Assembly (NCBI GenBank): GCA_973895155.1
Contig: OZ316898.1
Coordinates: 5,133,079 to 5,197,078 of the forward strand
Direction: 5' to 3'
From: Marsupella aquatica
Taxonomy: Eukaryota > Plantae > Marchantiophyta
DNA length: 64,000 nt
In this document: in pieces, positions 22,691 to 54,321 of the stretch
How the letters are laid out: every line of letters starts with the position of its first letter
How positions within the stretch are numbered: position 1 is the stretch's first letter
Translations under genes and position numbers: made by a program
Notes under the pieces: model-generated
The model's input: the letters and a program-made list of their open reading frames with translations, nothing else
The model's database searches: none
Told to the model about the DNA's origin: nothing

Positions 22691-23117
22691 TAACCCGATC
22701 TGGATCTTCAAGCTGAAATTCTTCTTTCATCTTCAACTCAAAGACCTTCCATGCTTTCTCCCCAGTAGCTCCATCTATCAAGGTAGTAACAATTCCCTTG
22801 AGTTCAGGTTCTACTAAAGATACAAACTCCTTGACTGCAACTTCTGCATCAATCTTATGAATTGTAGCCTCCGTCCAGTACCCCTTGAGATACTTGGTTA
22901 CATTTCGCCCATCAAATTCTCCTTGCTTGGTAAAAACCGAGTGTAGGTACTTCGTGGTCCTACCAAGCAACTCCTTCTTCTTGTTCTCCTCCATCTCTTT
23001 CTCCTTCATTCCATGTAAGTAAGCAGCAATCAAGGATGAAAACCTCTCCATGTCAGTTGGATTCATCTCAGTTCCCATGATTGCAATTCTTCCCTCTTGA
23101 CTTAATAATATAAACAA
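22690..23117 (-). pseudogene. Truncated gag N-terminus
   Basis: GEFDGRNVTKYL...F.SLVEPEL...W..FE..MKEEFQLED.DRVT resembles gag N-termini of gypsy elements from non-seed plants. It lies directly downstream of the PBS. Confidence 0.7.
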
Positions 23118-23201
23118 GTTAAGAACTCAAAGTTCCAAAACCATATCTCTCTCCATCCATTAGAACTCAAACATGCACAAGCTAACTTCCAAATTCAGCG
23201 G

Positions 23202-26660: not shown

Positions 26661-27752
26661 AGCTCAAACAACTTTTGGACACTAGGATAATACAATGATA
26701 CAACTGTGATTACTGACCCGTACGGACAAGGAAATCCGAGTAAGCATGATTTCATTCATTTGTATTCATTCATTTGTATTCATTCATGAACTTTACAATA
26801 ATTCAGATGTTTGAGCTCTGTCATTGTGAAACTATTATATATCAGAAGTTTAGAGAATGATTCACCTAAGATGATTCAATTTAGCAGTCTACTGGTTGTA
26901 TTCGTCAATTAAAGGATTCAGTGTAATGAGATTCACATAACATGAGAGTTTATATGATTAAATTCACAGCGTGCAAGTTTGTAATGAGTTTGTAATGAAT
27001 TTGTATGATTCACACATATTTGAGTTTACAAACAAACCGCATTATGAAAACTCAGCTTAACAATCAAGAGAAATTTTAGCAAACAACAATCAACACCAGC
27101 AGAAAATGTAGAAATTGCACCTGAATTCTGAAAAATTGATGTAATCGTCTGAGAGATTGACGTCCAAGCACTTGAAGACCTTGCTGCGGCATTCCAGAAA
27201 GTAAATATAAGATTGAATATATTAATATGCTAAGCAACAACAACACAGCTTCTATACTTCTATACATAGAGCTTCGCTGCCACCAATTGAATAACATGTG
27301 CTTAATGCTAAGGAACTCATTATGTCAAGTTAAAAAGACTCTTTCAGAAGTACAATCAAAGCTGTGGATAGGCAAATTGAGCATGAATAAAAGCGCACTA
27401 AACCTGAAGATTCAAAGAGGTGAAACAAACCTGAATGCTGAATGGAAGGAGCTGAAACAAGCTACCAAAAAGTAGTTCGAGCTGCTGAAACACATTGATC
27501 AAGCTGATATGAGCTTAAAATTGGCTGACACGAGCTGATACGAGCACTCCCAAAAAACTAGCTGCAACGAACCCAACGGGCTCCTAAGAATCCCTTCGAG
27601 CAAACTAGAAGTGAATACGAGCTGTAAATGCGAGCTGCAACGCGTCAACGAGCTCCTGGTCGAAACAATCGACAACTACTAAGAGCTGCAACGCGCCGAC
27701 AAGCACCTAACCACAATGAACGAGCTGCAACGACAAAAATGAAATCCAGGGC

Positions 27753-30546: not shown

Positions 30547-31038
30547 TAGTCGCGTGCAGGGCAGTGCATTGACTACATTTTGCCTACTTATTGACGGTCG
30601 TGACAGGACAATGCAATTCATAGACGTTTTACTGGCGCTTATTAGCATTACTATCCTCAGTAGTTACTGACTGTCCACTCATTTGTTCTAAGTGGATGTG
30701 AAATTAATGATTGATCGTAATTGATTGTGGTCGTTCTCATTCATTTGAAATGACTGACGGACCATGCATAGTCTGTTGCCGGTATGTGTGGTACCTCTAG
30801 GGTCACGCGACCAGTCGCGTGCAACGCAGTGCATTGACTACATTCTGCTTATTGACCGACGTGACAGGACAGTGCAGTGAAATCGACGGACATGACAGGA
30901 CTGTACGCTTATAGTGATATTCTCTAATGTGCAGGATCATAATTATTATGGTGACATCTACAATCTGGATCAGGGAAGGCGGACAAGTTATTATAGGCAT
31001 ACGTGAGAAACAGGTTGGAAAAGGTCGCGTGATAAGTC

Positions 31039-33281
31039 TTGATCCTTCCAGGGTTTTGTCACAATGTTCCTCTTGGGGCGGACAGAGTTCTTCTTCTATT
31101 GGAGGAAGTTTTTGACGAGACCATTCTATGCGAAGATGGCAAACTTTTGAAGGACATGATTGGGGGTTACGGACCTTGTATGGGAAAGGAATCAGCTTTT
31201 TCGAGCTCCCATGGAATCGGAGGATGGTTTGGCACTGTTGGTGATGATCAAGATCCAGTCAATCAAAATTCTGATGGGAACAACCATAATGAGAGTCGGT
31301 CTGGTGTGGAAGTAGTTTTACCAAAGGCCTTGTGGATGGGCATGCCTGTAAAGGTGGTGGATGAGAACAAGTTGATTTTTGCAGTGGCAACTATACATGT
31401 TCTAGATCCTATAGTGAAGCTTGGGGATGTCACCCTTGGGAATACACATGTGGGAATTCTGATCAACGATTTTGTCGAGGGAGCTACCATAGATCATCTG
31501 AAGCATAGAGATTGCTTAAAAGCTTGGTCGATGGACCAACTCATTGCCAAGGATGGCAACTTGTTGTCTTTCCACAACATCAGGCAAGCTGTGGGAGGGA
31601 ACACATCTCCAACAAGTGGCAAGCGGTCCTACGTCCATAAAAGTAGGAAAAGAAAGAGTCCATCTTCCCAAACATCTAGAAGAGACACATCTTTGGCACG
31701 TCAAGATGTGTTGTTGATAAACACTAAGGACTGTTGTAGTGAACATTGTTGCCAATATTTGGACCGCAACTTGGCTATGGCAATTAGGCAAAAGTGGTGG
31801 TCAAAATCTTTTGCGGAGCGCAAGGAGGAGGAAATCAAGGCTATTAAAAATACAATACACTTGGGTACTGGAGAAAGGATTCTAGTAGTGGAGGGCAAAG
31901 TATTGTGCTTGGAGGCATGGAGAATCATTCATTCAAGAGGAAAGACTCAATTTTATGCCTTGAAGAAGACTGTGATGGCTGGAATGAACATAGGTACCCA
32001 TGGTAATGCTGGAAAAAGGCGTATGTCCGAGAAAGTATCTCAAGCGTTCATGTCAATGAAAGAGATTATTGAGGAGGCAGCTGATCATCATTCAGCCAAG
32101 TTGAGAACCATGGCAGATAATACAAGGATGGTTTTGAGGGAATTGCCAACAAATCTTACTTGGGAGAATATTAGAAATAGGGTTAATGTTGTCAACCAGG
32201 AGGCTGGTCTTCCTCCAATTTCCCAACCCACCTTGAGTCATCTACATCAGATGTATTTCAGGGAGTTCTCACGTCACAAAAAGGGCAACAACTTTTCAAA
32301 GTGTACAACTTGTAGTGAGTTGCTTCAACGGAAAGCAAACCTTACAGGAGCTAAGGAAGAGTTAGAGGGCCTAAGGCGTGACGAGGAGGAACATCACCAA
32401 GACCACACACAACAAAGAATGTGCTATCATACCTGGAGATATGAGTCCATCCATCGTCCAAAGGAAGTGTTATGCCTTATTCATGATAAGATGGATCATT
32501 CAAAGACAGCTCTCCCAAGAATGCCCTTCAATCCTAAGCATGTGGATGGTGCCCAAAAGTTCCCAATTACTGTCACTAGTATCCTTACTCATGGTCATGG
32601 TCCCAAGGCCATAGCCCAATATCATGTTGGAGTGTGGCCAGGTGATGTCAACATCACTATTGGGTCAATTGATTCAATACTAAGGATGTTGGAAAACCCA
32701 AATCCAATGATCAAATCACTTGTGGAGGGGCCAGACTTGACAAGTCTTTTTAAAGACCTCCTTTTTGGGAGAGCAGATATCTTGGAGGCAAGTGTCCTTA
32801 GAGCATTTGAGGATGACATTGCCTACATCTCAAGCCTAGGTACTTTACTCACAATCCTTTAATTTATTATTATTTAATAATATAAGCTCACACACACTGA
32901 CACTCTACTTTGTGTAGTTGTTGCTCCTCCTAGCCAAGGTTTCATTAATAGGGTTTAAACCCTAAACCCTAAATTGGGGTTTAGGGTCTGACTAGGGTTT
33001 TATTTAAAAGCATTATGAGATTGTTACATTGTGATGCAGCACCTGAGGCACCAAAGTTTAGGCCCCTTCCACGAGTATTGAAGCTACAACTGGATAATTG
33101 TGCCTCAGACAACAAGAACAGATATATGATGGCTTATTTGTCATTGTTGACGGCAAGGGAGGTGTTTGAAGAGGTTCATCTTGGTTTTATGGTGGTTGGG
33201 CATACTCATGAGGACGTTGACGGTATGTTTGGGCATTTTTCAGAGTCTATGATGCATAACCCCACATACTCATTGCCTGAG
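31039..33281 (+). pseudogene. Sola-like DDD transposase (DUF7869-type), 5' part; spliced (about 32839/32918-32938/33040); broken by the gypsy insertion
   Basis: CCSEHCC, FSKCTTC, HDKMD, LQLDNCASDNKN and FMVVGHTHEDVDGMFG motifs. A 21-nt mini-exon with GT/AG boundaries keeps the frame. Confidence 0.8.
32950..33000. repeat. Short interstitial TTTAGGG/CCCTAAA telomere-like repeats in both orientations
   Basis: AGGGTTTAAACCCTAAACCCTAAATTGGGGTTTAGGGT...TAGGGTTT inside a predicted intron. Confidence 0.7.
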
Positions 33282-36200
33282 TGTGACGCCGCCGGTACGG
33301 CGAGTAATGAGTAATTCGGTCTAAACCGTGCTTAGCACGCACGTTAGGGGTATCTTAGGCCGCTATGATTAGCATAACGACAGTATTTAGATAGCCATTA
33401 TGAGTAGGAAATCATTAGTCAATAAGGGGAATTCATGTTTGGGCTGGCGGCGCGTCGCCATTCGCACGCCCGGGTTACGAGCGTGGAGGGGCCCCTCCCT
33501 CGGGTCCGTATAACGAACTTCGGGAGGCGTCCACTGACATGCGGTGACTCAGACCGGCGAAGTGGCCGGTACACTACAAGCGTGAACGGTTCAGCCTATA
33601 GGCAACGAGGAGATGTCAGGGGATCGACAAGCCCTCAAGGTATAAAAAGGGAGCCGACCCTTTGTAGTGCACCAGTCCATCAGTCCACGCGCCATCTTCG
33701 ACCCCAACTCTCTCGTTTGCTCTTAGTCGCCACTACTATCTCCTCTGAATGTCGCACACGATCCTCTCCAGTTTGGCCATTCGATTCTGGATGCAGTTCA
33801 TATCTACCGGAAGACACTTGGCCGACTCATTGAAACACGCCAACCCGCGCCGATACGAAATCAAATGCGAGTACGAGAGAGCCATCCGCCTAGCAGGACG
33901 ACACCACTACATCCTTAACTTTGACTACCCGTCTCAGAGCGAGATTTACCGACCAGCAGAGGTATCTGGGTACTTCTTCAACGGAGACAAATATATCGGT
34001 TTCTGGGAAGCATTGCTTCAGCTTCCGGACGAGGTCTTTAATATCCCGGGTACGATCGACTTGCAACGACATCACTTTGACCACATCCCTGCTCAGGTTC
34101 GGGCTATCATCAATAGCGAGTCCAGCACTACCCGTTCGACAAGGTTGTCTATACTTGCTTTGGAGAACTTCTACCAGCACCTGCAGAGCTTCATGGGGAC
34201 TAGACCCGCAACCACCGGCGCCGACCCAGTCGACCCCATACCCGTACCCGCACCAACGTAGACTCAGGCTCAGGCTCAGCTTCAGTCTCAGTCTCAGTCT
34301 CAGCCTAGCCAACCCCCACCGCCGATCGCCCCGCCAGTAGTACAAGTACGCTCCGTCATCAATGCTGTGGACCTTAGCGATGATGACGAGGCTACCCCAC
34401 CCTTGCTCAGGCGGCCCAGAGGAGCAAACACTTAGGGGGCCGACACTACATTGTCCCCTCCCCATGCTCGGACCCAAGGAGCGGCTCCAGCAGACAACAT
34501 GGTGACCGTGGCCGCCCCGAGCCCAATACTAACGGCGGTAGCACTACCTATGCCCGATAGAGAGGATGGGGAGGTGTCACCCTCCCCGAGCCAGTCACGG
34601 GGGAAGAAGAGGAAGGAACCCACCACTGCATCCGGGTTACCATTGGCCACGGTAGCCGTGGCCAAGGTGACAATGCACCGCATGGGGGAAAACATGCATA
34701 AGAACATCCTCCATCCCAAGCATGCGGTGTACCTGAAGACTCAGGGATTCGAGCACCTCGCCTCTCTCCCCTGGAACACTTGCATGTACTAAGGGGAGGA
34801 CATGACAGAATTCGTCAAGAATTATGATGACGCACGTCAACATACTCGGCTGCGGGGAAGGAATATGTCCCTCACGGAAGAACGGCTCAAGATGATCTTT
34901 GGATTACCCGAAGGTGACCATCGAGTCGAATCACGGGCTCCCAGGGGCAAGGGAGCCAAGTACCAATCCTCGAGTTTTCCCTCAGAGGGAGCAGTGGACA
35001 ACGGGTTCGTGATGAGGACCTGCCTCATCCCTGAGATAGCTGAGCGACTGGAGTTCCAAAGGTACGCCCTCCACATGATGGAACCCTGGGGGGAGATCTC
35101 CGCCGCCCAGGTTATCCAGGTCGAGAACTATCGACCTAGGAAGTGGGCGTCGTACTTCGCTAAGAAATTCCATGAAGAGATGGAGCGGCGAAGGAAGACG
35201 TTGTACATTGGCGGGAAGGCGTATTTCGCTAGCCACATCGAGATCATTCTTGAGTGGTACGTTCGGTTTGATCGACGAACCCTTCCCCGTGTCAACGTTA
35301 CAAAGCTGGTCCCAGCTAGGTGGGTTTCCCCGGCCTTGGAGAGACGGCCCCAACCCGAGGCCCGAAGTCCAGCGGATACGCAAGCTTCACCCACCCCACC
35401 TCCACAAGTAGCTGTAGTCGTAACCGAGGAGGTACCGGATGGGTCGGTTATCGCAACCGTAGATGCGATCCAACAGGCTGAGCTAAGTACATAAGTTGGT
35501 ACAGTGGAGGTCTTACTCGAGCCCGGGTCTCCCAAAGACCCACCGGTGGCTATTCCGGAGAACCAGACATTACTACAGGAGGACACTCCAGCCCCTTCCA
35601 ACATTACGTCCCCAGGGCTGGATGTCACTGCCCCGGGCCCCGCGCGTGTTGACGTCTGCCCGTGCCCAACTCCAGACAGGCACAACCTGGACCACCCGGA
35701 ACTCTTCGTACCGGGTACATTTCTGAACGGGCTTCTGGGAGATTTCTCTCATCAAATTGCCCGGGATACCGGGGAGTTCATGGCCCGGAAGGTAGCCTGT
35801 TTCTTCAATCATTAGTTAGTTGCCGTAGTAAAGGCAGGTCGGGCCCAGTCAGAGGCCCTTCAAAGGATAGAGCGGTACCGGGTGGAGTCCGTATACTTAA
35901 AGAACAAAGTTGCAGCTCAAGAGGCTGAGCTTCTGCAACTACGACCCAAAGTTGTAGCCGCCGATGAGTTGTTAGCAAAGGCGCACGCCCTTACCGCCCT
36001 AGCCGAGCAGGCCAAAGCTGGGAACGAGGCCGAGATTGCACGACTCCGGAACCAGATTGACAGTTTGAAGAATCAAACTATCATCTGGCAGAAAGACCTG
36101 GAGGAGGCCGAAGAATGGGCCCAGCGGGACACTATGGAGATAGCCACGCTACAGGCCGAAGTGGCGCGGCTCCATATCGAAGCCGAGAAGCAGGACCAGC

Positions 36201-37296
36201 TGGCGGGCAAGCTGATGAGCAACGCCCAGCAGCTGGAGGAGGCATGCCAGGAGGTAGCGGAGGAGACAGACGCGGCAAAGCAAGAGAACGAATCTCTGCT
36301 GGACCAGGTCCAGCTCCTCAAGGTGGACAATGACAGACTTCGTAAGCAGCGGGATGGCCGCTCCCACTCGGGAGGCTCTGGCAAGCGTGCCAGACATTAG
36401 CGGCGGAGTAGGAATAGAATAGGGTTAGGAATAGCTAAGTCAGGCTATTGGGACAGGCACCTGCCTTAGTTACAGCAGCACTGCCATGCTGTCCAGCCTG
36501 CGTAGATTAGGATCTTCTAATAAGACACAGCCGTTTTTCGGCCTCACAGTCAGATTAGTTAGGACCTAAGTCAGCAAATCTTTGGGCGGGAGGACACTCC
36601 GTTCCTCGGCCCTTAGTATTTAGTGCACCCCTCGGTAGAGGCAGGGGGTTTTTAGTCTCAGAGTTGGACATCCATGGTATGTGCGGGGAGTCCCGACCTC
36701 TAGGAGTGAAAGAGTACCAAGGGGAGGGGGTAGGACTAAGCTCGCCAGGCGAGTGCGGAGCCGGGCTCCGTTGTAGTATACTCCCTCGGCCTTGAACCTG
36801 TTCATTCCAGAGCTGTCGGGTCAACCAAGTGTACGCACATGTCCCCTATGTAGTAAAATCCTTTTCCATTATTTCCTTCGTGTAAATCGAGATTGTATGC
36901 TTGTGTGCGTGTATGTGTGTGTGAATCTCGTGTATAGGTGACAACGCCGGGCAGAACGCACTACCCGAGTCGTGCACGGGGTGCAGCTTGCGGGTATGTG
37001 GTTGCGAGCACGGGTTGAGGACCTGTATCATAGAATCCGGATCAAAGGCGGACAACACGAAGGCTTAGAAGTCCTTAAGCCGGGGTCGATCCTGTTATCG
37101 ACTAAGGTACATTCCGGCGGTGGAACACAAACCATATCTAGGAGATGTCCGTATCTAACAGTAGGCGCACTTAGCGCTAGTTTACGTGAATTAGGTGCAT
37201 TACGTTCTTCCCTCCCTGCCCGAACCCTCATATTTACGAAGGAGGTGCCCGTTTAAAGCTAAAGCCCAAGTTAAGGCCAAGGCTGATGACGTGACA
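33282..37296 (+). repeat. 5' LTR, 4,015 bp
   Basis: Colinear with 45182-47884 plus 51489-52783. About 11 substitutions in the first ~380 bp, mostly transitions. TATAAAA at 33641. Confidence 0.96.
33749..36400 (+). pseudogene. LTR-encoded ORF of about 883 codons (N-terminal domain, Pro/Gln linker, plant-transposon-type domain, coiled coil)
   Basis: ORFs starting 33749, 34451, 34802, 35504 and 35882 are all in one frame. Four of the five internal stops are sense codons in the 3' LTR copy (CAG, TAC, GAA, GAG). Confidence 0.85.
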
Positions 37297-37309
37297 TAGC
37301 CTTTGTTTT

Positions 37310-37328
37310 TGGCGCTAGATGGAGGGGA
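37310..37328 (+). promoter_or_regulatory. Primer binding site (TGGCGCTAGATGGAGGGGA), 13 nt downstream of the LTR
   Basis: Starts with TGG after a T-rich spacer and resembles the TGGCGCTAGAAGGAGG PBS of Tat-group elements. The tRNA identity is not determined. Confidence 0.75.
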
Positions 37329-37537
37329 CACTCTACAGATCGTAGAGGGGAGACATGTGCGTATTCGCCTGGGCAGAATACACCAGGCCCTAGTACTAAC
37401 CATCGCATTTACACGAGTAAATGCCCATCACTCGTTCTCAAGCAGCTTACTTGAGGAGATTGACCAGCGAATGAGAAGGTGCGACCACAACAAGCTCCGA
37501 TTCTTCGGGCTCGGAGGACTCGCAATCGCCCCGACGA

Positions 37538-39554
37538 ATGAACATACCACCGGGACCTTCGGGGTCCAGTTCGAACGGTCCTACTGCGGTTCCTGTGCCA
37601 CCACCGCCACCACCGCCACCACCTATGGCAGCCACCCCACTGATGGCCCGCGCTGCCCAAGCTCCTCCACAAATATCGCAACGATCGCGGTTTCATTATC
37701 AACCTTTCAAAGGGCGTCATGGGGATGATCTGGATGAATGGTTGGATGAGTTTGAAGCCACTGCTAAGGCTAACGGGGAAGACGCCATTAAGTTAACCGT
37801 CCTCCCCGGAGTGATGCGGGGAGAAGCTCATCCATGGTACAACTCGCTGCCACCCGGGACTACCTGGGCACAATTCCAAGCTGCGTTGTTGCAAGAATTT
37901 CGTGCTATTGGATCCGAGCATCGCTCTCTATTAAAGATCGGCCAGCTTTGCATGGGAAAAAAGGAGTCCCTGTGAAAGTTCATTCAGAAGTTTCAGAAAC
38001 TTGCTGCCAAAATATGGCCCAGGCCTGGTGACGCACTCCAGCTTACATGGTTCCTCCATGGTTTGCCCACGAATATGCAATTCTGGGTGCGCCAGAATAA
38101 TCCAATTTCAATGCAAGCAGCCATAGCGTGCGCCGAAACCTACCGGGAGTCCACCTATAACTCCCGGCGAAGCCAACGGGCACGCCGCAAGAAGGGCAAG
38201 TACGAGACCTTCAGTGACAGTGACTCCGAATCAGATGACGAGAAGAAGAAGAAACGCAAGAAGAAGAAGAAACATCGTTCAACCTCGTCCAGTTCGGAGA
38301 CTGAATCTAGTTCGGATTCAACTTTGAACAGCGGGTCCTCCACCTCCAGCTCATCAGGAAGTGATTCGGAGAGTGAGAGCCGAAGCAAGAAGAAGAAAAG
38401 GCGAGTTGGCTGCCGAAGCAGACAAGCTTAACGAAATCACAGATCGCCTCAAAGCACTGTCAATACATCTCGCGGAAAAGCCGGTGGAGAAGAAGAAGCC
38501 ATTTGAGATTCGAGCTCATGCATGGTGTTCAAAGTGCTTCCAATCCGGGCATGTCGTGCAAGAATGTCCAAGATGGAAGAACCGAGTTCACCAGGTAGAC
38601 TTAGATGATGTCGACAACCCGGGACCTGAAGCGGAGTCCACGGAGTATTTCTTTGAAGACCCTCCTGATTCGGTGTATCAGATTTCAACGGTGGGTCTGC
38701 GTAACTTAGCAGGTAGAACTGCATACCCCTACCCAAACAATGGCCGAGGCTTCCAAGTTATCAGTAACCCTAGCATTCCACCTAAACCAGGGATTTGGCG
38801 ATCCCCGGTTTGTTACAACTGTGAGAAACCAGGCCATTTTGCGAGGGAATGCACAGAACCAAGACGCCAGGGGGATGGTCATGGCACGCCACTTTGTCAA
38901 GTCTGCAAAATGGAAGCTCATTCCACGACCAACTGTCCATTGGTAATGGCCGCTCGAACAAATGCAGCAAGACCAGCCCAAGGCGGACCGGCCACGAGTG
39001 ATGCGGTCGTCCAAATGATTGCGGTGGAATGGCAAGATGACAACACCGAGTGGGTGAATCTGGTGGACGTGGCGGAACACCCTAATCCATCTGACGAGGC
39101 TGAGTGCTATCGTGTATCAACAAGAGCCGAACGGAAGGAAGAGAAGCAGGAGGAGAATTGCAGGAAAAAGCAAGATACTACTCCGGTGCAGCCAGCGATA
39201 GATATACCCCCGGAGAAGGATGATGACTACCAACGGGACGACCCGAAGCTATTTTTTCCCCGCATCAAAGAATTGGTAAAGAAACAGCTGGAGGCCTACG
39301 AAGCTCGGGAGTACCAGAAGGCAATCGATAAGGACATCAAAGCAACTGAGACCGCCCGGCGACAGGAGCAAGAAAAGCAAGAAAAGCAAGAGGAAGCCAA
39401 GCAGCAGCCGAAGGAAGAAAAGAAGGAGGACTATGATATTAAGGAAGACGTGAAGAGTTGCCCGGTTACAGCAACGGTAGGACAACTGCTGCAAAACAAT
39501 CCACAGTACAGACGGCAACTGAGGGAGTTGCTTACGGGTCGACGACGGAGATGA
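37538..39554 (+). pseudogene. gag with three zinc knuckles; stop at 37973 and frameshift near 38400
   Basis: FKGRHGDDLDEWLDEFE...MRGEAHPWY...TW..F...LLQEF; CSKCFQSGHVVQEC, CYNCEKPGHFAREC and CQVCKMEAHSTTNC. Confidence 0.9.
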
Positions 39555-41073
39555 CTACCCCGAGTTGGGACCGCGGATTGCAACATGATATGCGAGGACC
39601 TGGGAGCGCCGGACATCTCGATTGAAATTAATAATTGTACCATCAAGATGGTTCTCGTAGACGGAGGAGCGGGAGTCAACATCATGACTGAAGAAACATC
39701 AGTCAAGTTAGGATACCTCACGTATCAACCCACAGCCCGAGCTATCAGATTAGCAAACGGGGCAGGGGTACTTCCATTGGGCACGCTTACACGGGTACTC
39801 ACTCTGGTAGGAGGGGTGGAGTTCTATCTCAACTTCCTAGTCATGAGGCCGGTTCGGCCCTCCTCTTATCCGGTCCTCCTAGGCAGGCCGTGGCTGTACG
39901 GTGGCCGTGTGGTCACGGATTGGGGAAAGAAGGAGCTACGGTTTGGGACACCCACAGTACGGGTATCATGGGCAATGGACGATTATCAGGGTGAAACCCC
40001 ACAGGGACCCGAGGAATATGATTTGGAGACCTCGGAGGAAGAGGAACTCAACATGATTGAACTCATCTCGTCCCTGTCTGAGGAAGATGTCTTCGGAGTT
40101 AAGGCAACCCGCGAAACACATCTCCTGAATTACCCGAAGGCTGCTATTGAGCCCACCCCAAGCACCTCTACTGCCCGGGATGAGGAAACGCAAAAACAAC
40201 TCATCGATACGGAGGACCCGGCTCCAGCTAAGCAAGGAGCCGATGCTGCTTCTACTAGTGTAGAGCCTCATGACCACGAACCAGCCAAACAACCGGCCGA
40301 GGCCGAAAACCCGAGACCGAGACATAAGAAACAAGTCTCCTGGGATCCGCCCATCCCGCAATTGGAGGAAGTAACTCCAATCCCGAGACCAATCCCGGTT
40401 CCACCCATGTACAGAGGAGTTCGGTTAGCTGAACTTGATGCGAGCCTGGACCCGAGCTTGCGGAACCAGGTTGAAGTCATCAGGAAGGAGCACTACCGGA
40501 AGTACACCATTGGGATGGACAAATCGTTTAACCTGGGCCACGCTCTGACGGGGGAGGTGGAAAAATCTATCCAAGCTCTGCTCAAGGAATATGAAGATGT
40601 GTTTGCATGGAGCCATCACGATTTAGCAGGAGTCTCCCCTGAGTTAGGAGAACACACGATCGATTTGAATCTGGGGGCCCATGCAGTACGGCAGTGACAA
40701 CGTCGCATGAACCCAAGGTACTCCATCTTAGTGAAGGAGGAAATTGATCGTCTCCTCGCCGCAGATATCATCTACCCGGTAATGGCCAGCGATTGGGTCT
40801 CTCCCATCGTCATTGTACCAAAAAAGGGAGGAACGGACGGAAAACCTAAGATCCAGATTTGTCAGGACTATTGTAAGTTGAACGACGCAACCTGAAAAGA
40901 CCATTACCCGTTACCATTCACGGATATGGTTCTAGATATGGTAGCCCAAAATGAAATTTATACATTCCTTGATGGGTATTCGGGTTATAACAAAATCTGG
41001 ATTCACCTCTCGGATTAGCTCAAAACAACGTTCACTACGGAATGGGGGACTTTTGCATTTCGGAGAATGCCGT
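39555..41073 (+). pseudogene. pol 5' part: aspartic protease and N-terminal half of reverse transcriptase
   Basis: VLVDGGAGVNIM...LLGRPWL; SDWVSPIVIVPKK, CQDY.KLN, KDHYPLP, LDGYSGYN, TTFTTEWGTFAFRRMP. In-frame TGA stops, probably from CGA. Confidence 0.92.
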
Positions 41074-43250
41074 CACTAGAAGAAAACCACCCATTCTGAG
41101 ACCCTCCCCTATGTGACTTGTGCGAGACCTTCATAAATATGCGACTCCAAGTTTGTGGGTGTCATGTTAGTTACATCATACCAACTAAGTTTTGGTGAGG
41201 TTGTGGGAAGTCATGCTTACAACTTTATCCAATGTCGCTATTGTAACACTGGTAAGTAAGAAATAGGTAAGTTATGTTAGTTACTCCACAATAGTGCAAT
41301 ATGAATTGGACATCATTTTTTAAAATTCCGTCAGCATGCATACCCCATTAGCCAATTTCGGATGCCAATCCCTAATATGCAACTCCCGGTGCAACTACAT
41401 ATTGCACACTCATGGTTGGCGAGGTCCAAATATAATGGGTATAAATATGGGGGTTTTCATCAGAATGGTGGGTACTTTCACTTATAATGTGGATTCATAC
41501 CTGACTATATTTGGCCTTGTTCTTGACCAAAGTGCACTCTCCCCACATTGAACTTTTTGCTAAGTCATTTGCATTGGTTCTTTTATGTCCAAACCAACCT
41601 GTTTGCTAAGTCACTCGATGGCTGCCCACATGTGAGGGGTACTACTTTCCCTCAGGGTCACTGTACCTTGGAGGTTGGTTTTGCAAGAGATTTTGGGGGT
41701 ACTACTTGCCCTAAGTGTTCAGGGTTAGTGTGCCGCAGAGGTTGGTTTTGCGAGGGAAATCGGGAGTCAACGACCTTCATTCCAGCTGCACTCTTCGCGA
41801 ACTTTCTGCAGGGTCGTTTGAAAGTGTTTGAGCGCGACTGGACTTTAGGGTGCAAATGTGTTTAGGATTGGGCCTGCTACGAGCGTCAGTGTGGAGGTCT
41901 GCCAATCAGTTTTGAGGGGAGTCCATTGTCGCTTTTCAACCTGCTGGTGAGCTAAGCTGCTATTGAGTTTCAAGTGAGAGCTGCCGACTTGGAGTTGAGC
42001 TCTACGAGGTGGTGCCTGAGTGTACATCTGCTCGACATACTTTTGGGAGCTCGTAGTTGGTAGGAGGGCCAAGTCGTTGCACAAAAAGTTGCAGCCGTGA
42101 CAGTGCAAACTAGCTAGGCGGAGGCTGGTTACTGCAAGCAAGGCGGAGGATCACTGCGAGCTAGGTGGAGGAATGCTGCGCTGCTTCACATTGTCAAGAG
42201 ACATGCTGCATCGGCCCAAGTAAGGTTGCATTGACCTATCTATCTCTATGTCTATAAGGTCCTAACCGATAGTCTGCTTAGTGAGGTCCTGCTTTAAGCT
42301 ACATTTGTGCGATTGATTGTGTCCTGAGAAGCTTAACCATCACATGGGGGAACGGTAGCGAGAAAGGAGGGGTGGAGCCTGATGGTCGCCAAATATTCAA
42401 ACAGGGTCGCCTTGCTCGATATTGGTCTCATTGTTTTTTGCTACGGTGTGAAGGCGGCGGAGCTTCTAGTCTGACCTTTGAGTGACTTGCGGTGAGCTTC
42501 TAGTGTGGCTATTGAGGTCGACTGACCTGCATTGACCAAGCTGATCAACCTACTGAGCTGCCATTGGGAGTTGGAGGTTGTGTTGCGTTCGATTTTGGAG
42601 TCGGGAGGCTAAATGCGATAGCTCTATTCCGGGCTCTGTTCAGCTAATGTAGACGTTTCTGCTCAGGAGATGAGGTAAAATCTATCAACCTTCAAGCTGC
42701 TGTGAGGTTCATTGAAGAGGGAGGTTGAATGCCTAGCGCTATGAGGTGAGGAAGGAGAGTATGGCCAAGCTGCATCTTTAGGGGTTTTGCTTCAGCTTCG
42801 ACCATCTTTCATCGTCGTAATCGCTGCTCTCGCCTATCGCTACATGGCGGATTGCTGCTCTGCCCTTTTGGCATGGGTCGCCGGCCTGCTGGATGCTATC
42901 TCCAGTCCCGGTGTTGCAGTAGTGTCCCCGACTCTAAGATGGAACAGAGTGTCATCTTTCTTGTTTCCTGCTGCTGCTGATGTATGTCTGTTCTCCCCTA
43001 TTTTTGCTTACTGATTGGTCTCTCCACACTTCTTGCTTGACATGACTGTTTTGCTCCTCCCTGTATCAGAACATGCCTTGTGCCCCGTGCTCTGGCAATG
43101 GGGTGGGGGGGTGAACAGACGGCCTTAAGGTCCACTAAATTTATAGGAACCGTGCAATCGTTCAGCTGATTTTAGCAGCAAGTTCCCTTGCTTTCCCCTG
43201 TTTTTGCTAGGATCCCTCCCCACTAATCACATGCATCCTTTACTTTTCTT
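41074..43250. mobile_element. Truncated CACTA fragment in the RT domain (one terminus only; right boundary approximate)
   Basis: Begins CACTAGAAGAAAACC exactly where RT breaks off. Shares about 130 bp (42960-43092) with 17401-17530 of the large CACTA in inverted orientation. No second TIR seen. Confidence 0.75.
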
Positions 43251-43259
43251 GGTGGCCCG

Positions 43260-45213
43260 TATTACCGTCGGTTCATTAAAGACTTTGCTAAAATAGCGTT
43301 GCCCTTGACTGAAATGATGAAAAAGGACGCGGTGATCGAGGAGACACCCAGGAGACGGATTGCTTTCGAAGAACTCCGTAAAAGACTCACCACCGCACCT
43401 ATCATGGTCACTCCAGACTGGAATAAGGAGTTCCACGTGTATGTCGATGTGTCATGGTTCTGTATTGGATCCGTGCTCAGTCAGCTCGATGAGGACGGAC
43501 GCAACTACCCCATCTACTTCGCTAGCCATCAATTATTCACAGCCAAAAAGAATTATTCCCCCACTGATCGAGAAGCTCTGGGAATAATCTACTCGTGTAA
43601 AAAGTTCCGACACTATCTGCTAGGCTACAAGGTCATATTCCACACGGATCATGATAGCCTGAAGTACATGGTCAACAAAGCGGACGTGACGGGACGGATA
43701 GCCCGGTGGGTGCTACTTCTCCAGGAATTTAACTACGAAGTTCGGGTTCGGCCCGAAAAGGCACACCTCAATGCCGACTTCTTTTCAAGGCTGGACGGCG
43801 TACCAGTCGATCAGCCAATTGATGATATTTTCCCGGATGAGGAGTTGTTCCACGTAGGGGCGGGGATGCCAACGTGGTACGGCTCAATAATCACCTTCCT
43901 CTTAACAGGCCGCATCCCTGACGGCATCAATCAGGAAGCCGCTGCTGTGTTTCTACGGAAAGCCGGGCCTTACGTCATGGTACAGGGTCACCTACATAAG
44001 GAAGGAGTTAATGGGAAGTTACGACGCTGCTTGGAGTATAAGGAGACGCTTATCGTGATGCGGGCCTTGCATGAAGAAGAAGCTGGAGGCCATTTCGCGA
44101 CTATCACGACAGCCCGAAAGATTATGGACTCAGGGTATTGGTGGCCTAAGTTGCATCGGGATGTACAACACTTCATCAAGGGCTGTGACCTGTGTCAGCG
44201 GGCTGGGGCTCCGAGACGAGCTCATCATCACCCTCTCACGTCCGTGCTTCCATTAGCACCATTCAAAAAGTGGGCATTGATTATATCGGGTCATTTACTC
44301 CCGTTACCCGAAGACGAAGATGCAGGTACATCCTACTTGCTATTGATTACTCCACCAAGTGGGTCGAAGCACGGGCTACGGTGAAGGACGACGCCGCAAC
44401 CAGCGCCAGGTTCTTATATGAACAGATTTTCACCCGGTTTGGACCACCCTTAGAGTTGGTAAGCGACCGTGGAACACACTTCCTCCATGACACTGTAGCC
44501 CAGCTTACGGAGTGTTACCTAGTCAAGCACCGCAAGACTACCCTGTATCATCCTAAAGCCAACGGGGTGACAGAGAGAGCAAATGGTATCAATGGGAAGA
44601 TCCTCAACAAAGCTGTAGCTGCGCACAAAACGGATTGGGATGATAAGTTGTACGCAGTAGTGTACTCGTATAATCTAGCTTACAAAACTACTACGAGTCA
44701 CAGCCCGTACTTTCTCGTGTTCGGCCAACATTCGTTGGTGCCCGTCGAGTTTGAGGTACACACTCCACGGGTCAGCATTCGGGATCGCTTACCTGAATCT
44801 GAAAGTTTGTCAGACCGAGCTTATCAGATTGAAGCCTTAGAAGAGGCACGGCTACTAGCAGCTCGACACGCCGTAATGAAGCAGACAACTTCCAAGAAAC
44901 AGCACGACAAAGGACTACGGAAGGTCGACGTCGTGACAGGCGATCTAGTCCTTCTGTATGACAGTAGGTACATGCAGTTTCCAGGGAAGCTTCATACCCG
45001 TTGGTTAGGGCCCTTCCTAGTCAATTAGATCTACCCTAACGGATCTTTGGAGCTTGCGACGTACGCCGGCGATTTACTCCCCACGCGAGTCAGTTATGAT
45101 CGTGTAAAGAAGTACCACCATCAAGACGACGACGCCAAGAGTGATGTTCGCGAGGACGCTTCACAATTAAGCAGGGAGCTATGTGACGCTGCCGGTACGG
45201 CGAGTAATGAGTA
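43260..45213 (+). pseudogene. pol 3' part: RT thumb, RNase H and integrase (HHCC, DDE, GPF); frameshift near 44270; reading frame ends just inside the 3' LTR
   Basis: YYRRFIKDFAKIA.PL, FHVYVD, NYSPTDREALG, HTDH, H...GGH...CDLCQR, GIDYIG, LVSDRGTHF, YHPKANGVTER and WLGPF. Confidence 0.93.
45169..45181 (+). promoter_or_regulatory. Polypurine tract
   Basis: AAGCAGGGAG-CTA immediately before the TGTGAC start of the 3' LTR. Confidence 0.7.
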
Positions 45214-47884
45214 ATTCAGTCTAAACCGTGCTTAGCACGCACGTTAGGGGTATCTTAGGCCGCTATGATTAGCATAACGACAGTATTTAGGTAGCCATTA
45301 TGAGTAGGAAATCATTAGTCAATAAGGGGAATTCATGTTTGGGCTGGCGGCGCGTCGCCATTCGCACGCCCGGGTTACGAGCGTGGAGGGGCCCCTCCCT
45401 CGGGTCCGTATAACAAACTTTGGGAGGCGTCCACTGACACGCGGTGACTCAGACCGGCGAAGTGGCCGGTACACTACAAGCGTGAACGGTTCAGCCTATA
45501 GGCAACGAGGAGATGTCGGGGGATTGACAAGCCCTCAAGGTATACAAAGGGAGTTGACCCTTTGTAGTGCACCAGTCCATCAGTCCACGCGCTAGCTTCG
45601 ACCCCAGCTCTCTCGTTTGCTCTTAGTCGCCACTACTATCTCCTCTGAATGTCACACACGATCCTCTCTAGTTCGGCCATTCGATTCTGGACGCAATTCC
45701 TATCTACCGGAAGACACTTGGCCGACTCATTGAAACACGCCAACCCACGCCGATACAAAATCGAACGTGAGTACGAGAGAGCCATCCGCCTAGCAGGACG
45801 ACACCACTACATCCTTAACTTTGACTACCCGTCTCAGAGCGAGCTTTACCGACCAGCAGAGGTATCTGGGTACTTCTTCAACAGAGACAAATATATCGGT
45901 TTCTGGGAAGCATTGCTTCGGCTTCCGGACGAGGTCTTCAATATCCCGGGTATGATCGACTTGCAACGACATCACTTCGACCACATCCCTGCTCAGGTTT
46001 GGGCTATCATCAACAGCGAGTCCAGCACTACCCGTTCGACAAGGTCGTCTGCACTTGCTTCGGAGAACTTCTACCAGCACCTGCAGAGCTTCATGGGGAC
46101 TAGACCCGCAACCACCGGCGCCGACCCATTCGACCCCATACCCGTACCCGCACCAACGCAGACTCAGGCTCAGCTTCAGTCTCAGTCTCAGCCTAGCCAA
46201 CCCCCACCGCCGATCGCCCCGCCAGCAGTACAAGTACGCTCTGTCATCAACGCTGTGGACCTTAGCGACGATGACGAGGCTACCCCACCCTTGCTCAGGC
46301 GGCCCAGAGGAGCAAACACTTAGGGGGACAACACTACATTGTCCCCTCCCCATGCTCGGACCCAAGGAGCGGCTCCAGCAGACAACACGGTGACCGTGGC
46401 CGCCCTGGGCCCAATACTAACGGCGGTAGCACTACCTATGCCCGATAGAGAGGATGGGGAGGTGTCACCCTCCCCGAGCCAGTCACGGGGGAAGAAGAGG
46501 AAGAAACCCACCACTGCATCCGGGTTACCATTGGCCACGGTAGCCATGGCCAAGGTGACAATGCACCGCATGGGGGAAAACGTGCATAAGAACATCCTCC
46601 ATCCCAAGCATGCGGTGTACCTGAAGACTAAGGGATTTGAGCACCTCGCCTCTCTCCCCTGGAACACTTGCAGGTACTACGGGGAGGACATGACAGAATT
46701 CGTCAAGAATTATGATGACGCACGTCAACATACTCGGCTGCGGGGAAGGAATATGTCCCTCACGGAAGAACGGCTCAAGATGATCTTTGGATTACCCGAA
46801 GGTGACCATCGAGTCGAATCACGGGCTCCCAGGGGCAAGGGAGCCAAGTACCAATCCTCGAGTTTTCCCTCAGAGGGAGCAGTGGACAACGGGTTTGTGA
46901 TGAGGACCTGCCTCATCCCTGAGATAGCTGAGTGACTGGAGTTCCAAAGGTACGCCCTCCACATGATGGAACCCCGGGGGGAGATCTCTGCCGCCCAGGT
47001 TATCCAGGTCGAGAACTATCGACCTAGGAAGTGGGCGTCGTACTTCGCTAAGAAATTCCATGAAGAGATGGAGCGGCGAAGGAAGACGTTGTACATTGGC
47101 GGGAAGGCGTATTTTGCTAGCCACATCAAGATCATTCTTGAGTGGTACGCTCGGTTTGATCGACGAACCCTTCCCCGTGTCAACGTTACAAAGCTGGTCC
47201 CAGCTAGGTGGGTTTTCCCTGCCTTGGAGAGACGGCCCCAACCCGAGGCCCGAAGTCCAGCGGACACGCAAGCTTCACCCACCCCACCTCCACAAGTAGC
47301 TGTAGTCGTAACCGAGGAGGTACCGGATGGGTCGGTTATCGCAACCGTAGATGCAATCCAACAGGCCAAGCTAAGTACAGAAGTCGGTACAGCGGAGGTC
47401 TTACTCGAGCCCGGGTCTCCCAAAGACCCACTGGTGGCTATTCCGGAGAACTGGACATTGCTGCAGGAGGACACTCCAGCCCCTTCCAACATTACGTCCC
47501 CAGGGCTGGATGTCACTGCCCCGGCCCCCGCGCGTGTTGACGTCTGCCCGTGCCCAACTCCGGACAGGCACAACCTGGACCACCCGGAACTCTTCGTACC
47601 GGGTACATTTCTGAACGGGCTTCTGGGAGATTTCTCTCATCAAATTGCCCGGGATACCGGGGAATTCATGGCCCGGAAGGTAGCCTATTTCTTCAATCAG
47701 GAGTTAGTTGCCGTAGTAAAGGCAGGTTGGGCCCAGTCAGAGGCCCTTCAGAGGATAGAGCGGTACCGGGTGGAGTCTGTATACTTAAAGAACAAAGTTG
47801 TGGCTCAAGAGGCTGAGCTTTGCAACTACGACCCAAAGTTGCAGCCGCCGACGAGTTGTTAGCAAAGGCGCACGCCCTTACCGC

Positions 47885-50800
47885 TGTGAGATAAGGATGT
47901 TTATGAGAGAAGGGTTAACTAGCCATAAATTTTTGAATTTTTAAGTTTAAGATCTCAAGTGAGGCTAAAGAGGGACCTGAAGACTACTATGAAGTGTTAT
48001 GAGACTTTCAAGCCCATCTGAGGTCAACCCGGATTGATATTAGAGAAGGAGGATCGACCCGGAACTTTTTGTTATAAACCTGGAATGTGATATAAAGCTT
48101 ATACCGAGACTCTACTCAACAACAGCTGTCCATTGCCAAAGTTTTTAAAACCATAAGTCAAACATAGGCACGACCACAGCAGAATCCGGATATAAGGAAG
48201 GAGAGTCGATCCGGCCTCTCACACCTCTCAAAGCCGAACTTAGTAGGTTTTGAGTTCCCGAGCGCATTAGGCTATTAAAGCAGTAGAGTGAGGAGGCTCT
48301 ACCCTTTTGGTAGAGGATCTTGGGTCCGGATTATAGGACCAATCTTGAATTTATTGATGAGAGCCTAGATATGAGGGTACTGACTGATTCGTTGTGAGGG
48401 GAATGCCTACTCCGCCGCTGGGAGTGAAGGCAGGAAGTTTGAGATTCTGATCGTGCATACATCGGTGATGAGAATGAAGGCCAGGTCTATCCGGACATCC
48501 ACATTGTAGGCCCGTTTGAGTCTATCTTTGCCCCACGTTCGATGCACCTGAATTTTGATTGACGGGATCTTGATCAACGTTTCCAGAAGCGCTTGTCAGT
48601 TGATCAGAAACGCCGTAGCCAGGTCGACCCGGACATTTCTACCATTGGTCGACACCGAAGCGATTGACCATTCTGAAGTCGCAGCATTGTAGAGCTCGCC
48701 GACAAGGAGGGAGGCCATTTATTGGGAATCCATTTTCTGCTTCGATAAGTCCTATGGAGCAAGGGACGGATCCAGCCGGAATGTCCACTTCTCGCGTCTC
48801 TAAGGGGCATTCAACCTCAACATCACCTGCACCTACTCCGGTTAAAGCCCCTGTGAGACGATCAAAGAGAAAGGAGGTCCCTATTGCCATGAAAATTCTG
48901 AGGCCAGTTATTCCGGACAGTGAAGCTGAGAAGGTCAAACTGAGGGAGTCTTTGCTCAGGATGGGCTGTGAGTCTCTGATGGAGCTACCTTGGAGTTATC
49001 AGAGCGAAGATATGATCAGAGAGATCCGATCTAAGGAGTATCCGGCTGAGTTTAAGGATACCTTCAGAGGCCGACCTGAGCGATGGACTCAGATGATGAT
49101 TGCAGGAGCTTTTGTATTGGAATGAAGGAGAAGGTCCAGTGGGAAGAGCTGTCAACCTAATCCTTCCTTACTTCAAAGGAGCCATCAACAGTAAGGACGG
49201 GTTCAATGTTTCTAAGTGTTTGGATCCTGACCTGAGACGAGTCTTCAGCTTTCTGCTACCCCTGCTGTACCCTGAGAAGCCAAGAAGAGTTATTGTTGGA
49301 GTTGGCTCTACCATTGTTGCTGCTTACAAGGGAGAAAGAAAAGTCAACTGGGCTAAGCTTATCTTTGATTTGATAAGGAAGTTGGTACAGAACCTATTCA
49401 ACAAGAGTCCTACTCCCCTCTCCTGCTACCTGGTACATCTATATAGCTTTGAAGGAGTTTTGTTCAGAGAGGAGAAGAAATTACTATTGGCCAAGTACAA
49501 CTTCATCAAGTATGGAGAGACAGATCCAGATATCACCAAGGCCACCTCTGATGACAGTGAGGGTGAGGAACTAGCAGAGACAAATCCTCGAAAGACCCGA
49601 TCTGCTGCCCGGAACCTCGACCCGGACTTTTCCGACCCGGCCTTCGTCGACCCGGCTGAATGTCTGGATGCACCCGGCCATGCCTCCCAAGATACCCTAG
49701 CTGATTTCCAGATCATCTCAGACACGTTCCAGAAGGTGAAGAGGAAGACCACTGTGATGGAGAAGGTCATCACCGACATTTCGCAGAAGCTAGGAGTGAA
49801 ACCAGGGCAGATTCTTGAGAAGATCTCCACCATGAGTGATGCCACAGATAAGAAGAAGTTGGAGAAGGAGAATGAGTTCCTCAAGAAGAAGGTATCTGAA
49901 CTCAAATAGCAGTTGGAAAGGAGTAAGAAGAAGAATGAGCTTGAGCATACTCTCCAACTCAGTATCACTCAATCTTTGGATCTGATTGAGCCTTTGACTA
50001 AGATAGCTTCTCTGGATCTTCTTAAGGCCCAAATTTATGATGAGTATTTGGCCAAGAACACCACACCCATCCTTTTCTCCAAGATTAACCATTTAGTGGT
50101 AGATGTGAGTACCAAGGTGGATGATGCACTTACAGGCCTCTCAAAGACCTGTGAAGCCTTAAGGGAGATGAGTGACTTGACTACAGAGGAGCTATTAGCT
50201 GATACTGAGATTCCTCCCTTTACTACCAGATCTTTCTCTCCTAGTCCTCATGAAAGAGTCTATTCCACTGGCCCCTCATCACCCCTCAACCCTCCTGGTT
50301 TCCCCACTCCCAGTACACACTTCCACTCCCATTCTTACACCTATTCTCATGACCCAAGTGCCCATCAGGAGAACATGGATATTGACCCGTCCATCCCTTT
50401 TACCACTGGCCAGCAAGGAGTTTTCCTTCGACCAGAACCCCTTGCTATGGCTAACCCCGAGTAGGTTCCTTCCCAAAAGCTAGGACCAGAATAGAGTTAT
50501 ATTTAGAGAGTTAGAGCCACATTAGTTTAGACTTAGAAATATCTATATAGATTAGTATATGAGTAAGTAGACTCCAGTATTTTGTTGATGTATCCATTGG
50601 AGACTCTACTCCATTTTTTATTAGGATAGTTCACTTTTATTTACATATTTCTTTAGACTTGGGTTTTTGAAGAGACATGTCTTTTCATAATCTCCACTTT
50701 TAGTACAAAAGGAGGAGAACCCAAAGTCAACAGAGAGAGAGAAAATATACATTTGATTTCCTCATTGCCTTTGAAGGAATCTATGTCTTTCTTCCCTTCC

Positions 50801-51483
50801 TTTTTACCATGGTTGAGTAAAAGGAAGAAGTTTAGCAACCCTTGAGTTGTTGTGAAATGTTCAATGAATGCTAGAGTGTGCCTATAATGATATTGGAAGA
50901 TCAATGAGATTTGTGACCAATACATTTGGAAGATTCACCAAAGAGGAAATTGACATTTGCACAAAACTCAACCAAGCAATCTTAAGGATTGTAGGAGAAG
51001 TAAGCCGATTCGAGTATCCTAGTACCGTCCTCAACAGGACCAGAAAAGTATCCCGGGTTGATTTACGTTCATATCTTCTAAATTCAAGAGATGGAGAAGA
51101 GTTGCTACGAGAAATCAAAAAGCATAGAAAATGTTGATTTCTGAATCTTAAATTAGGCCATAATCCTTATTGAAGGAGTGGTGATGGTCAGAAATTCAAT
51201 TCCCTTGCACTTTGAAAACTCCTATCTACTCTCTCTCTAGTTTCAATCTTTGTTAATTCTAGTCTTTATTATTGCACTGTGAATCCTAAGGATTACCCAC
51301 TTGAGTTTGTGGTTAAACACTTATGTTAAGGAGATCATTAGAAATCTCTCCAACCTAAGAATATTGGTGTAAACTTCTCAAATTGTGTTAATTAGGTCTT
51401 TTCGATCTTATCCACTCCTAACCGGAACAAAATCGATTTGTTAAGGAATAAATAGTCATTTATCTCTTTATCACCTTGCTACA
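47885..51483 (+). mobile_element. Solo LTR, 3,599 bp, from a different family, with an internal ORF
   Basis: TGT...ACA termini and 5-bp TSD ACCGC (47880-47884, 51484-51488). Absent from the 5' LTR. No gag, pol or internal LTR pair seen. Confidence 0.88.
48664..50464 (+). pseudogene. Solo-LTR-encoded ORF (about 570-600 aa; one frameshift near 49115, one stop at 49907): plant-transposon-type domain plus coiled coil
   Basis: LLRMGCESLMELPW...EDMIRE...FRGRP..WT...AF.L / KDGF....C.DP..RRVF.FL.P.LYPEKP.R...KVNWA...TPLS.YL.HLY. Confidence 0.8.
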
Positions 51484-52788
51484 ACCGCCCTAGCCGAGCA
51501 GGCCAAAGCTGGGAACGAGGCCGAGATTGCATGACTCCGGAACCAGATTGACAGTTTGAAGAATCAAACTGTCATCTGGCAGAAAGACCTGGAGGAGGCC
51601 GAAGAACGGGCCCAGCGGGACACTGCGGAGATAGCCATGCTACAGGCCGAAGTGGCGCGGCTCCAAACCAAAGCCGAGAAGCAGGACCAGCTGGCGGGCA
51701 AGCTGACGAGCAACGCCCAGCAGCTGGAGGAGGCATGCTAGGAGGCAGCAAAGGAGACAGACGCGGCGAAGCGAGAGAACGAATCTCTGCTGGACCAGGT
51801 CCAGCTCCTCAAGGCGGACAACGATAGACTTCGTAAGCAGCGGGATGGCCGCTCCCACTCGGGCGGCTCTGGCAAGCGTGCCAGGCATTAGCGGCGGAGT
51901 AGGAATAGAATAGGGTTAGGAATAGCTAAGTCAGGCTATTGGGACAAGCACCTGCCTTAGTTACAGCAGCACTGCCATGCTATCCAGCCTGCGTAGATTA
52001 GGATCTTCTAATAAGACACAACCGTTTTTTGGCCTAATAGTCAGATTAGTTAGGACCTAAGTCAGCGAATCTTCGGGCGGGAGGACGCTCCATTCCTCGG
52101 CCCTTAGTATTTAGTGCACCCCTCGGTAGAGGCAGGGGGGTTTTTAGTCTCAGAGTTGGACATCCGTGGTATGTGCGAGGAGTCCCGACCTCTGGGAGTG
52201 AAAGAGTACCAAGGGGAGGGGGTAGGACTAAGCTCGCCGGGCGAGTGCGGAGCCGGGCTCCGTTGTAGTGTACTCCCTCGGCCTTGAACCTGTTCATTCC
52301 AGAGCTGTCGGGTCAACCAAGTGTACGCACATGTCCCCTATGTAGTAAAATCCTTTCCCATTATTTCCTTCGTGTAAATCGAGATTGTATGCTTGTGCAC
52401 GTGTATGTGTGTGTGAATCTCGTGTATAGGTGACAACGTCGGGCCGAACGCACTACCCGAGTCGTGCACGGGGTGCAGCTTGCGGGTATGTGGTTGCGAG
52501 CACGAGTTGAGGACCTGTATCATAGAATCTGGATCAAAGGCGGACAACACGAAGGCTTAGAAGTCCTTAAGCCGGGGTTGATCCTGTTATCGACTAAGGT
52601 ACGTTCCGGCGGTGGAACACAAACCATACCTAGGAGATGTCTGTATCTAACAGTAGGCGCACTTAGCGCTAGTTTACGTGAATTAGGTGCATTACGTTCT
52701 TCCCTCCCTGCCCGAACCCTCATATTTACGAAGGAGGTGCCCGTTTAAAGTTGAAGCCCGAGGCCAAGGCTGATGACGTGACACTGAG

Positions 52789-54321
52789 TTAATGTCCTTT
52801 TTCATGAGAGCAAGGACCCCGGGTATGCAACTCCCCTTTTTATAAGGCAAGTTTTTAATTCCTTATAATGGCCTTATATCCAATTGACCATCTTAGATTT
52901 CATTTTAGTCTACTAAAGTCTTGTACCTCTGAACTCAAGGAATCCAAAAATGTAGCTTAAAAAAAAAACTAAACATCTTTTGATGTACAAAAAGTTGATC
53001 AAAACCAAATTATATGGGTTTTTTTTAATACAAGGGTCTACAGCCAAACTAGCCAGCTTTTTAGGATTTTTATTAAAATTTTAAAAATCTTTTAATAAAA
53101 ATTACAACATGTATAGGAATATTTTTTAATTTCATATGGAAAATGAAGAAAACCAAACCTTTTATATGACTTGAAAATTTTTTAAAGTGGAAAACCCAGG
53201 TTTTTTCAAATTTTAATTATTTTGTATAGCCAACTTTTTAGTCCATATAAAAATGTAGACCCCTGTGTATTATATAAGAGTTGTGTACCCGGGGCAAGGA
53301 CACCCAATGCAGTCCCACATTTTCTACAGGAGGTCCCAGATTTCAAAAACTACTTAGCTCCATTCATGTTGAAGGGCCCTGAGGCATTGGTGGGGCATTT
53401 AAAACCCAGACTGTTTAGGTTCTATGTTCATCATGATAGTATGCCATGCTTCCAATACAAAATGAAGTCAACTGATCAGGGATGGTTACCCAAGGAAGGT
53501 ATTGAAATGTGGTCATGGAAAGATGACAAAAGTCCTCACATCCCAATTGGGGTGCCCAAACGGCTACCAATGATGGAGTTGAAAATGCTTCCTGAAGTGC
53601 TGACAGGGTTGAAGAAGCATGTGTCATTCTTTGAGTTTATTCTAAAGCGAACAAAAGAGGAAGAACCAAAGCGACGTTGGACAACTCTCATCAATTATTG
53701 GAATGACATTGTAGATACTCTACAGGGTGAGCAGGTGCAATATGAACCTGAAGGTGCACACAACTTGGAATACGGGTTTTGGCCTTTATCAATATGGAGA
53801 GAGCACGTTCCACCAGAATATCAAAATGTGGCATGTGAGTTGGAGGCAACAGTGGATTATGTGGGACCAGCAAAAGATAAACCTCCTGAGAGTTTTAACC
53901 CTAGGGTTGATGTTGTGAAGGGCTGTTATGTGTTGGTACGGCCGGACGACTCAGACCTGGATGTTTATCCCGTCCATATGGGGTTAGTTGTTACATATGT
54001 GGTAGAAGGACCAGTGAATGAACAAAACCTTCTTACTCATGTATATATGTGGCATAGAGTGGTTTAGACCATTTATGGCAAAGAAGCAACGTGGTCAATC
54101 AGACTGGCAGCCAAGAGAGCGGTGGGCAGATTCTTGGGATAAGAAATGGAACGTGATCCAACTCCAATATACAAGGAAGCTGAGACAATAGATGTTTCCT
54201 CTGCCTTGTGGTGTTTCAAAGCACGCAAAAGACCAGTGACAGGGCTGGTAGGAATTCCAAAGAATGTTGCTATCAAGGCAAGAGACTATCTCTTGACATG
54301 CATAGCAAGTGACAAATCCTA
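52789..54321 (+). pseudogene. Sola-like transposase 3' part (interrupted by a MITE; frameshifts near 54055 and 54150)
   Basis: Removing the gypsy element and the MITE restores YSLPE-LMSFFMRARTPNAVPHFLQEVPDFKNYL...GHLKPRLFRFY. Confidence 0.8.
52818..53293. mobile_element. hAT-type MITE, 476 bp
   Basis: 16-bp TIR CCCGGGTA(TG/CA)CAACTC (14/16 match), 8-bp TSD GCAAGGAC (52810-52817, 53294-53301) and an AT-rich non-coding interior. Confidence 0.88.

Follow-up and report, generated by a model that had tools for sequence, protein, structure and literature searches.

The large Ty3/gypsy retrotransposons Athila (PF03078/PF20167), Ogre (PMD, PF10536) and Retand (PF04195) carry extra open reading frames (ORFs), accessory genes of ~600 codons that encode a globular domain and a coiled coil. 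We describe a gene of this kind in the liverwort Marsupella aquatica, located in a 3,599-bp unit (47885-51483) that is inserted into one long terminal repeat (LTR) of a Ty3/gypsy element, here called the host, within a 64,000-nucleotide stretch of contig OZ316898.1 (positions 5,133,079 to 5,197,078 of the forward strand; hereafter, the window). According to the available parts of the articles cited here and below, the extra ORFs of non-chromovirus gypsy elements are internal, either preceding gag or situated between pol and the 3' LTR (PMC6317226, PMC7264820); LTRs reach ~5 kb in the Athila, Ogre and Retand lineages (PMC6317226), PF20167 is found in the extra ORF of a sunflower Athila (PMC11728184), and what the extra ORFs of plant retrotransposons do has long been debated as an open question (PMC7264820). 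The rice elements Retrosat2, RIRE3 and RIRE8 similarly combine LTRs of >3 kb, an extra ORF and many solo LTRs, but their ORF0 is separate and upstream of gag-pol, and the available part of the source does not describe it inside an LTR (PMC3485330). At the locus analysed here, in contrast, the gene lies inside the LTR, is doubled in the host and is left in a lone unit. Protein genes in or overlapping LTRs are known from retroviruses, for instance mouse mammary tumour virus sag and lentiviral nef, which act on immune cells; no relation to these in sequence or fold is expected. In the literature searched, which covered few subscription papers, no plant LTR is described as containing a gene of this type, although cases may be listed in the supplements of PMC6317226.

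The unit starts with TGT, ends with ACA and is abutted on both sides by the 5-bp target-site duplication ACCGC (47880-47884 and 51484-51488). In the 5' LTR of the host, ACCGC occurs once (35993-35997) with identical flanks, and this empty site defines the unit boundaries exactly and places the insertion after the integration of the host. The insertion point falls within the coiled-coil segment of the ORF carried by the host LTR. An earlier note on this DNA had described a 3.6-kb TGT...ACA unit with a perfect duplication, inserted into the host LTR ORF, devoid of gag and pol and without obvious DNA similarity to the host LTR, all of which was borne out: the insert ORFs have no gag or pol match in Pfam, and the insert and the host LTR share nothing beyond 17-bp chance words. 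The sole DNA match of the insert in the rest of the window is a 27-bp stretch outside the host (48550-48576 versus 31245-31271, 96%, opposite strand, E 9e-6).

The termini of the unit are complementary over only 3 bp. No terminal inverted repeats (TIRs) beyond these 3 bp, no DDE or integrase domain match in Pfam, no polypurine tract (PPT) and no primer-binding site (PBS; four common PBS starts) were found inside it. Terminal repeats and direct repeats of >25 bp are likewise lacking in the unit. The earlier note had named short internal terminal repeats with a PBS and PPT, typical of terminal-repeat retrotransposons in miniature (TRIM) or large retrotransposon derivatives (LARD), as a finding that would contradict its reading, and the absence of repeats speaks against such a structure. 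Ginger-type DNA transposons can likewise begin with TGT and end with ACA. A TRIM-type element, a DNA transposon or an ORF nested in a non-coding LTR would nevertheless be a very improbable origin, given the missing direct repeats, TIRs and DDE domain; the nested ORF, which the earlier note had also raised, is largely refuted by the even coverage of the ORF in four sequencing runs and its collinearity with full-length relatives.

Nine sequencing runs were found, none recorded as RNA, and four of them contain at least half of the sampled words. Four runs were compared with the unit; each covers it in 30 of 30 bins, and all four contain the empty-site joint. Contigs reach the 3' end of the unit in three of the four (run X7 has none), and depth collapses directly past 51483. 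Fourteen contigs from runs X1 and X3 continue past this position and group into ten rows that differ in their flanks, one row being common to both runs. The unit thus belongs to a family of many dispersed copies whose 3' end is fixed. The continuation common to X1 and X3 was considered as a PBS and rejected, as it corresponds to no known PBS type and a shared single locus fits equally. No PBS-like continuation shared among the 14 contigs was recognised in this test, which is biased against shared junctions: assembly-graph contigs that exit the repeat share no more than 30 bases with it and were probably missed. Neither a paired copy nor a PBS or PPT for the unit was seen in the sequencing-run contigs. 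Pattern matches in viral contigs (0/39 and 0/66) and metagenome contigs (0/154 and 0/202) yielded no confirmed related locus with DNA context.

The unit thus features TG...CA ends, a 5-bp duplication with an empty site, no gag, pol or PBS, and copies dispersed as seen at the 3' boundary, as expected of a solo LTR. The earlier note had read it as such; the boundaries, the duplication and the dispersed copies agree with that reading, and, no paired copy, PBS or PPT having been seen, we regard a solo LTR of an LTR retrotransposon as probable. Alternatively, the unit could be a complete non-autonomous element with this gene as its entire cargo, mobilised in trans by an integrase-like enzyme and never flanking an internal domain. 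The even coverage along the unit and the 14 contigs lacking a shared PBS-like continuation would suit such an element, but the junction test is biased as stated, the unit offers no PBS, PPT or terminal repeats for reverse transcription and no TIRs beyond 3 bp, and it shares its layout and a homologous gene with a proven paired LTR; this alternative is improbable. We know of no route by which a single unit without PBS, PPT and terminal repeats could copy itself, which favours the solo LTR. The unit could also be the solo LTR of a LARD-like non-autonomous family, in which paired coding LTRs surround a non-coding interior. Nothing ties the unit to a gag-pol of its own, and no evidence speaks directly against this origin; the homologous host LTR, however, does flank gag-pol, and we rate a LARD-like family as still less probable than a single-unit element.

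The ORF of the insert spans 48619-50464 (1,846 nt stop to stop, plus strand, as are all features of the unit and the host below) and is broken into three pieces: the frame shifts near 49121-49125, and a stop codon at 49907-49909 interrupts it. The first piece (48754-49125, with the first and second in-frame ATG codons at 48754 and 48889) encodes the N-terminal part of a conserved domain and ends at the frameshift. The second (49100-49909) encodes the rest of the domain (to ~49490), an acidic linker and the start of a coiled coil, and ends at the in-frame stop. The third (49910-50464), in the same frame as the second, encodes the coiled coil, a conserved C-terminal helical motif and a low-complexity tail, and is followed by an AT-rich non-coding 3' part of 1,019 bp (50465-51483), the host LTR counterpart of which measures 896 bp. 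In all four runs, other copies differ from this copy at the frameshift, the in-frame stop and the final stop, indicating that the breaks are specific to the present copy, in which the gene is a pseudogene. The ~1.8-kb ORF of the earlier note is thus right in span and wrong in being intact, and the claim that the gene survives LTR-LTR recombination has to be qualified for this copy.

The first relative found for the insert protein was P0003 (31% over 220 residues), which led to five more. A profile of these six members retrieved 1,181 clusters at E<=0.001, the best identity of relatives to the insert protein being 44-45%. The resulting alignment comprises 116 rows, of which 110 are the domain-covering ones among the best 150 and the others are five earlier relatives and P0036; the insert is collinear with the family across domain, coiled coil and C-terminal motif. 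A domain profile built without window sequences was searched against a six-frame translation of the window (426 segments). It matched the insert (E 2e-43 and 2e-21), an ORF at 1123 (E 1e-7) and both host LTR ORFs (E 0.010 and 0.017, scores reached by 0 of 1,000 shuffles), and no other locus of the window fell under E 1. HHalign against the host and 1123 ORFs gave a probability of 91.9 (E 7e-7, 112 columns). The homology emerged only with the deep profile: a pairwise BLASTP comparison of the insert and host ORFs fell short of significance (E 0.033), and a shallow profile left the host marginal (E ~2, with 1 of 1,000 shuffles as high). Layouts also agree, the two LTR-like units measuring 3.6 and 4.0 kb and their sense ORFs ending 1,019 and 896 bp before the right end.

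Judged from these profile comparisons, the insert and host LTR proteins are distantly related members of one superfamily, and since both coding-LTR proteins belong to it, they represent a single accessory gene inherited by two families that have diverged, not genes captured twice independently. The second coding LTR had been called unrelated to the first, which holds for DNA only. The earlier note was correct on the architecture, and its suggestion that coding LTRs recur in this genome finds support in the host and the insert, both coding LTR-like units; it erred on unrelatedness and on the intact ORF.

Neither the insert nor its relatives reach a Pfam cut-off for this family, a difference from the Athila-type ORFs; the best PF20167 match (E 0.005) occurs in one of the 116 relatives, and the insert has none. 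ESM Atlas leads, the taxa of which are Streptophyta, link the insert family to PF20167 and PF03078 with a score of 0.91 and 162 shared features. DUF1985 and PMD are not among 25 of the 26 Pfam families listed for the 116 relatives, and none of the 630 candidates (156-497 aa) from a word-index search with the domain proved to be a match.

A model of the domain, obtained from a relative, has as its best structural match the DNA-bound anti-silencing protein VANC21 over the whole domain (PDB 9LNK and 9LNJ), at 10-12% identity. The domain is therefore predicted to fold like VANC21, and it probably is a true member of a VANC/PMD/Athila-ORF superfamily. Foldseek with a first, low-confidence full-length model found no match, and a PDB sequence search returned coiled-coil noise only, VANC being absent among the matches listed. 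VANC21 (DUF1985) belongs to VANDAL Mu-like DNA transposons and is structurally related to the PMD proteins MAIN and MAIL1; its targets are short, dense, family-private motifs in one orientation (PMC5735166). The insert resembles this system in predicted fold, coiled coil and a one-orientation motif, but it is LTR-encoded with a 5-bp duplication, and its motif is CG-rich and dispersed rather than tandemly repeated. No VANC fold has been assigned to this retrotransposon family in the literature searched, subject to the coverage given above.

The motif is an 11-bp CG-rich word present in eight plus-strand copies with <=2 mismatches. Six copies, candidate binding sites, lie upstream of the first ATG within 48023-48658 (starts at 48023, 48053, 48205, 48485, 48623 and 48648), and two lie in the linker (49616 and 49646). 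In 200 dinucleotide shuffles the motif occurred 0.34 times on average and three times at most, and the count of the top CG-containing 8-mer was reached in 0 of 300 shuffles. Run X3 contains a well-supported variant in which 48460-48618 is replaced by 19 other letters, which suggests that subfamilies differ in the motif region.

These features can be accommodated in the following account. An element of a second Ty3/gypsy-type family would have integrated into the host 3' LTR, creating the 5-bp duplication; LTR-LTR recombination would then have removed its internal region, leaving one LTR with the duplication intact, and the gene in the leftover LTR would later have decayed. In functional copies, the protein would bind the LTR motif via its VANC-like domain, oligomerise via the coiled coil and keep the LTR active. 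As a whole, a solo LTR with a VANC-like and likely sequence-specific anti-silencing gene acting on its own LTR motif seems somewhat better supported than not, while binding of the motif together with anti-silencing by the LTR protein is, taken by itself, plausible at slightly less than even chances. Three points weigh against the role given to the motif: the host LTR has no such motif enrichment, the motif was chosen post hoc, and the insert is poor in CpG (0.44 versus 0.83). The unit may instead be a solo LTR encoding an Athila-ORF-type factor with another job, such as particle or RNA handling, nuclear import or coiled-coil integration targeting, the motif being a host transcription-factor site. 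This is in keeping with the ESM Atlas links, with the unassigned function of the PF20167-containing sunflower ORF (PMC11728184), with a fold that is silent on function and with the motif-free host LTR. The whole-domain match to an anti-silencing protein bound to DNA and the clustering of the motif in one orientation argue against it, and we consider it rather unlikely.

If anti-silencing by the LTR protein is correct, solo LTRs, usually deemed inert scars, would remain self-contained modules. With the gene and the candidate sites located in the LTR, a full element would have two gene copies and a solo LTR one, and intact solo LTRs, each carrying gene and sites, could provide it in trans as a source of the factor. 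LTR-LTR recombination deletes internal accessory genes, whereas an LTR-located gene would be kept and spread. The locus pairs a well-modelled domain, the nearest solved structure of which is a DNA-bound anti-silencing protein, with a candidate motif that lies in the LTR itself. The broader proposal, that plant LTR retrotransposons use VANC-type anti-silencing of their own with gene and motifs in the LTR, that solo LTRs de-silence the family in trans, and that the 1,181-cluster family (and perhaps the Athila/PF20167 ORFs) is the retrotransposon branch of VANC/PMD, is speculative and at present doubtful. For annotation, one host element already warns that "hypothetical proteins" of this large family may be signs of LTRs and not of host genes.

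The host (33282-52783) is a Ty3/gypsy element flanked by a CTGAG duplication, with 4.0-kb LTRs that diverge by a Kimura two-parameter distance (K2P) of 0.036 over 3,997 sites. Its domains comprise gag/zf-CCHC, protease, reverse transcriptase (RT)-RNaseH and integrase. The 5' LTR (33282-37296, 4,015 bp) is uninterrupted, and the 3' LTR (45182-52783) is split by the insert into 45182-47884 and 51489-52783. The homologous ORF sits inside both LTRs; in the 5' LTR it spans 34436-36400, with the conserved domain at ~34733-35250, and the stops at 34790, 35492 and 35813 are private to that LTR. The internal region (37297-45181) holds a PBS-like site near 37310, gag, protease, an interrupted RT-RNase H, integrase and a purine tract before 45182. 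The PBS-like site (37297-37330) lies ~13 bases from the LTR end, a spacing and sequence that we take to resemble those of Athila/Tat-type elements primed by tRNA-Asn.

A second host-LTR ORF (33749-34435, ~228 codons), without a Pfam match, lies upstream of and in frame with the domain ORF, from which it is separated by a stop common to both LTRs; a TATA-like box is found ~105 bp upstream. The host RT is interrupted (41074-~43226) by ~2.1 kb that start with a CACTA terminus and share 141 bp, inverted, with 17402-17541; its right terminus was not found. The host in turn interrupts a DUF7869 transposase-like reading frame (31036-33314 and 53186-54067).

The ORF at 1123-3435 is a third superfamily member in the window (its profile score was reached by 0 of 1,000 shuffles), for which element ends were not found. 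Its end is truncated by a 17-kb CACTA element (3399-20456) with matching termini, TGT on both sides, Transposase_21 and ORFs with BRCT and PHD-finger domains. A gag-like ORF (22599-23126) lies on the opposite strand relative to the 1123-3435 ORF, and a 189-bp tandem repeat array occupies 24394-26793.
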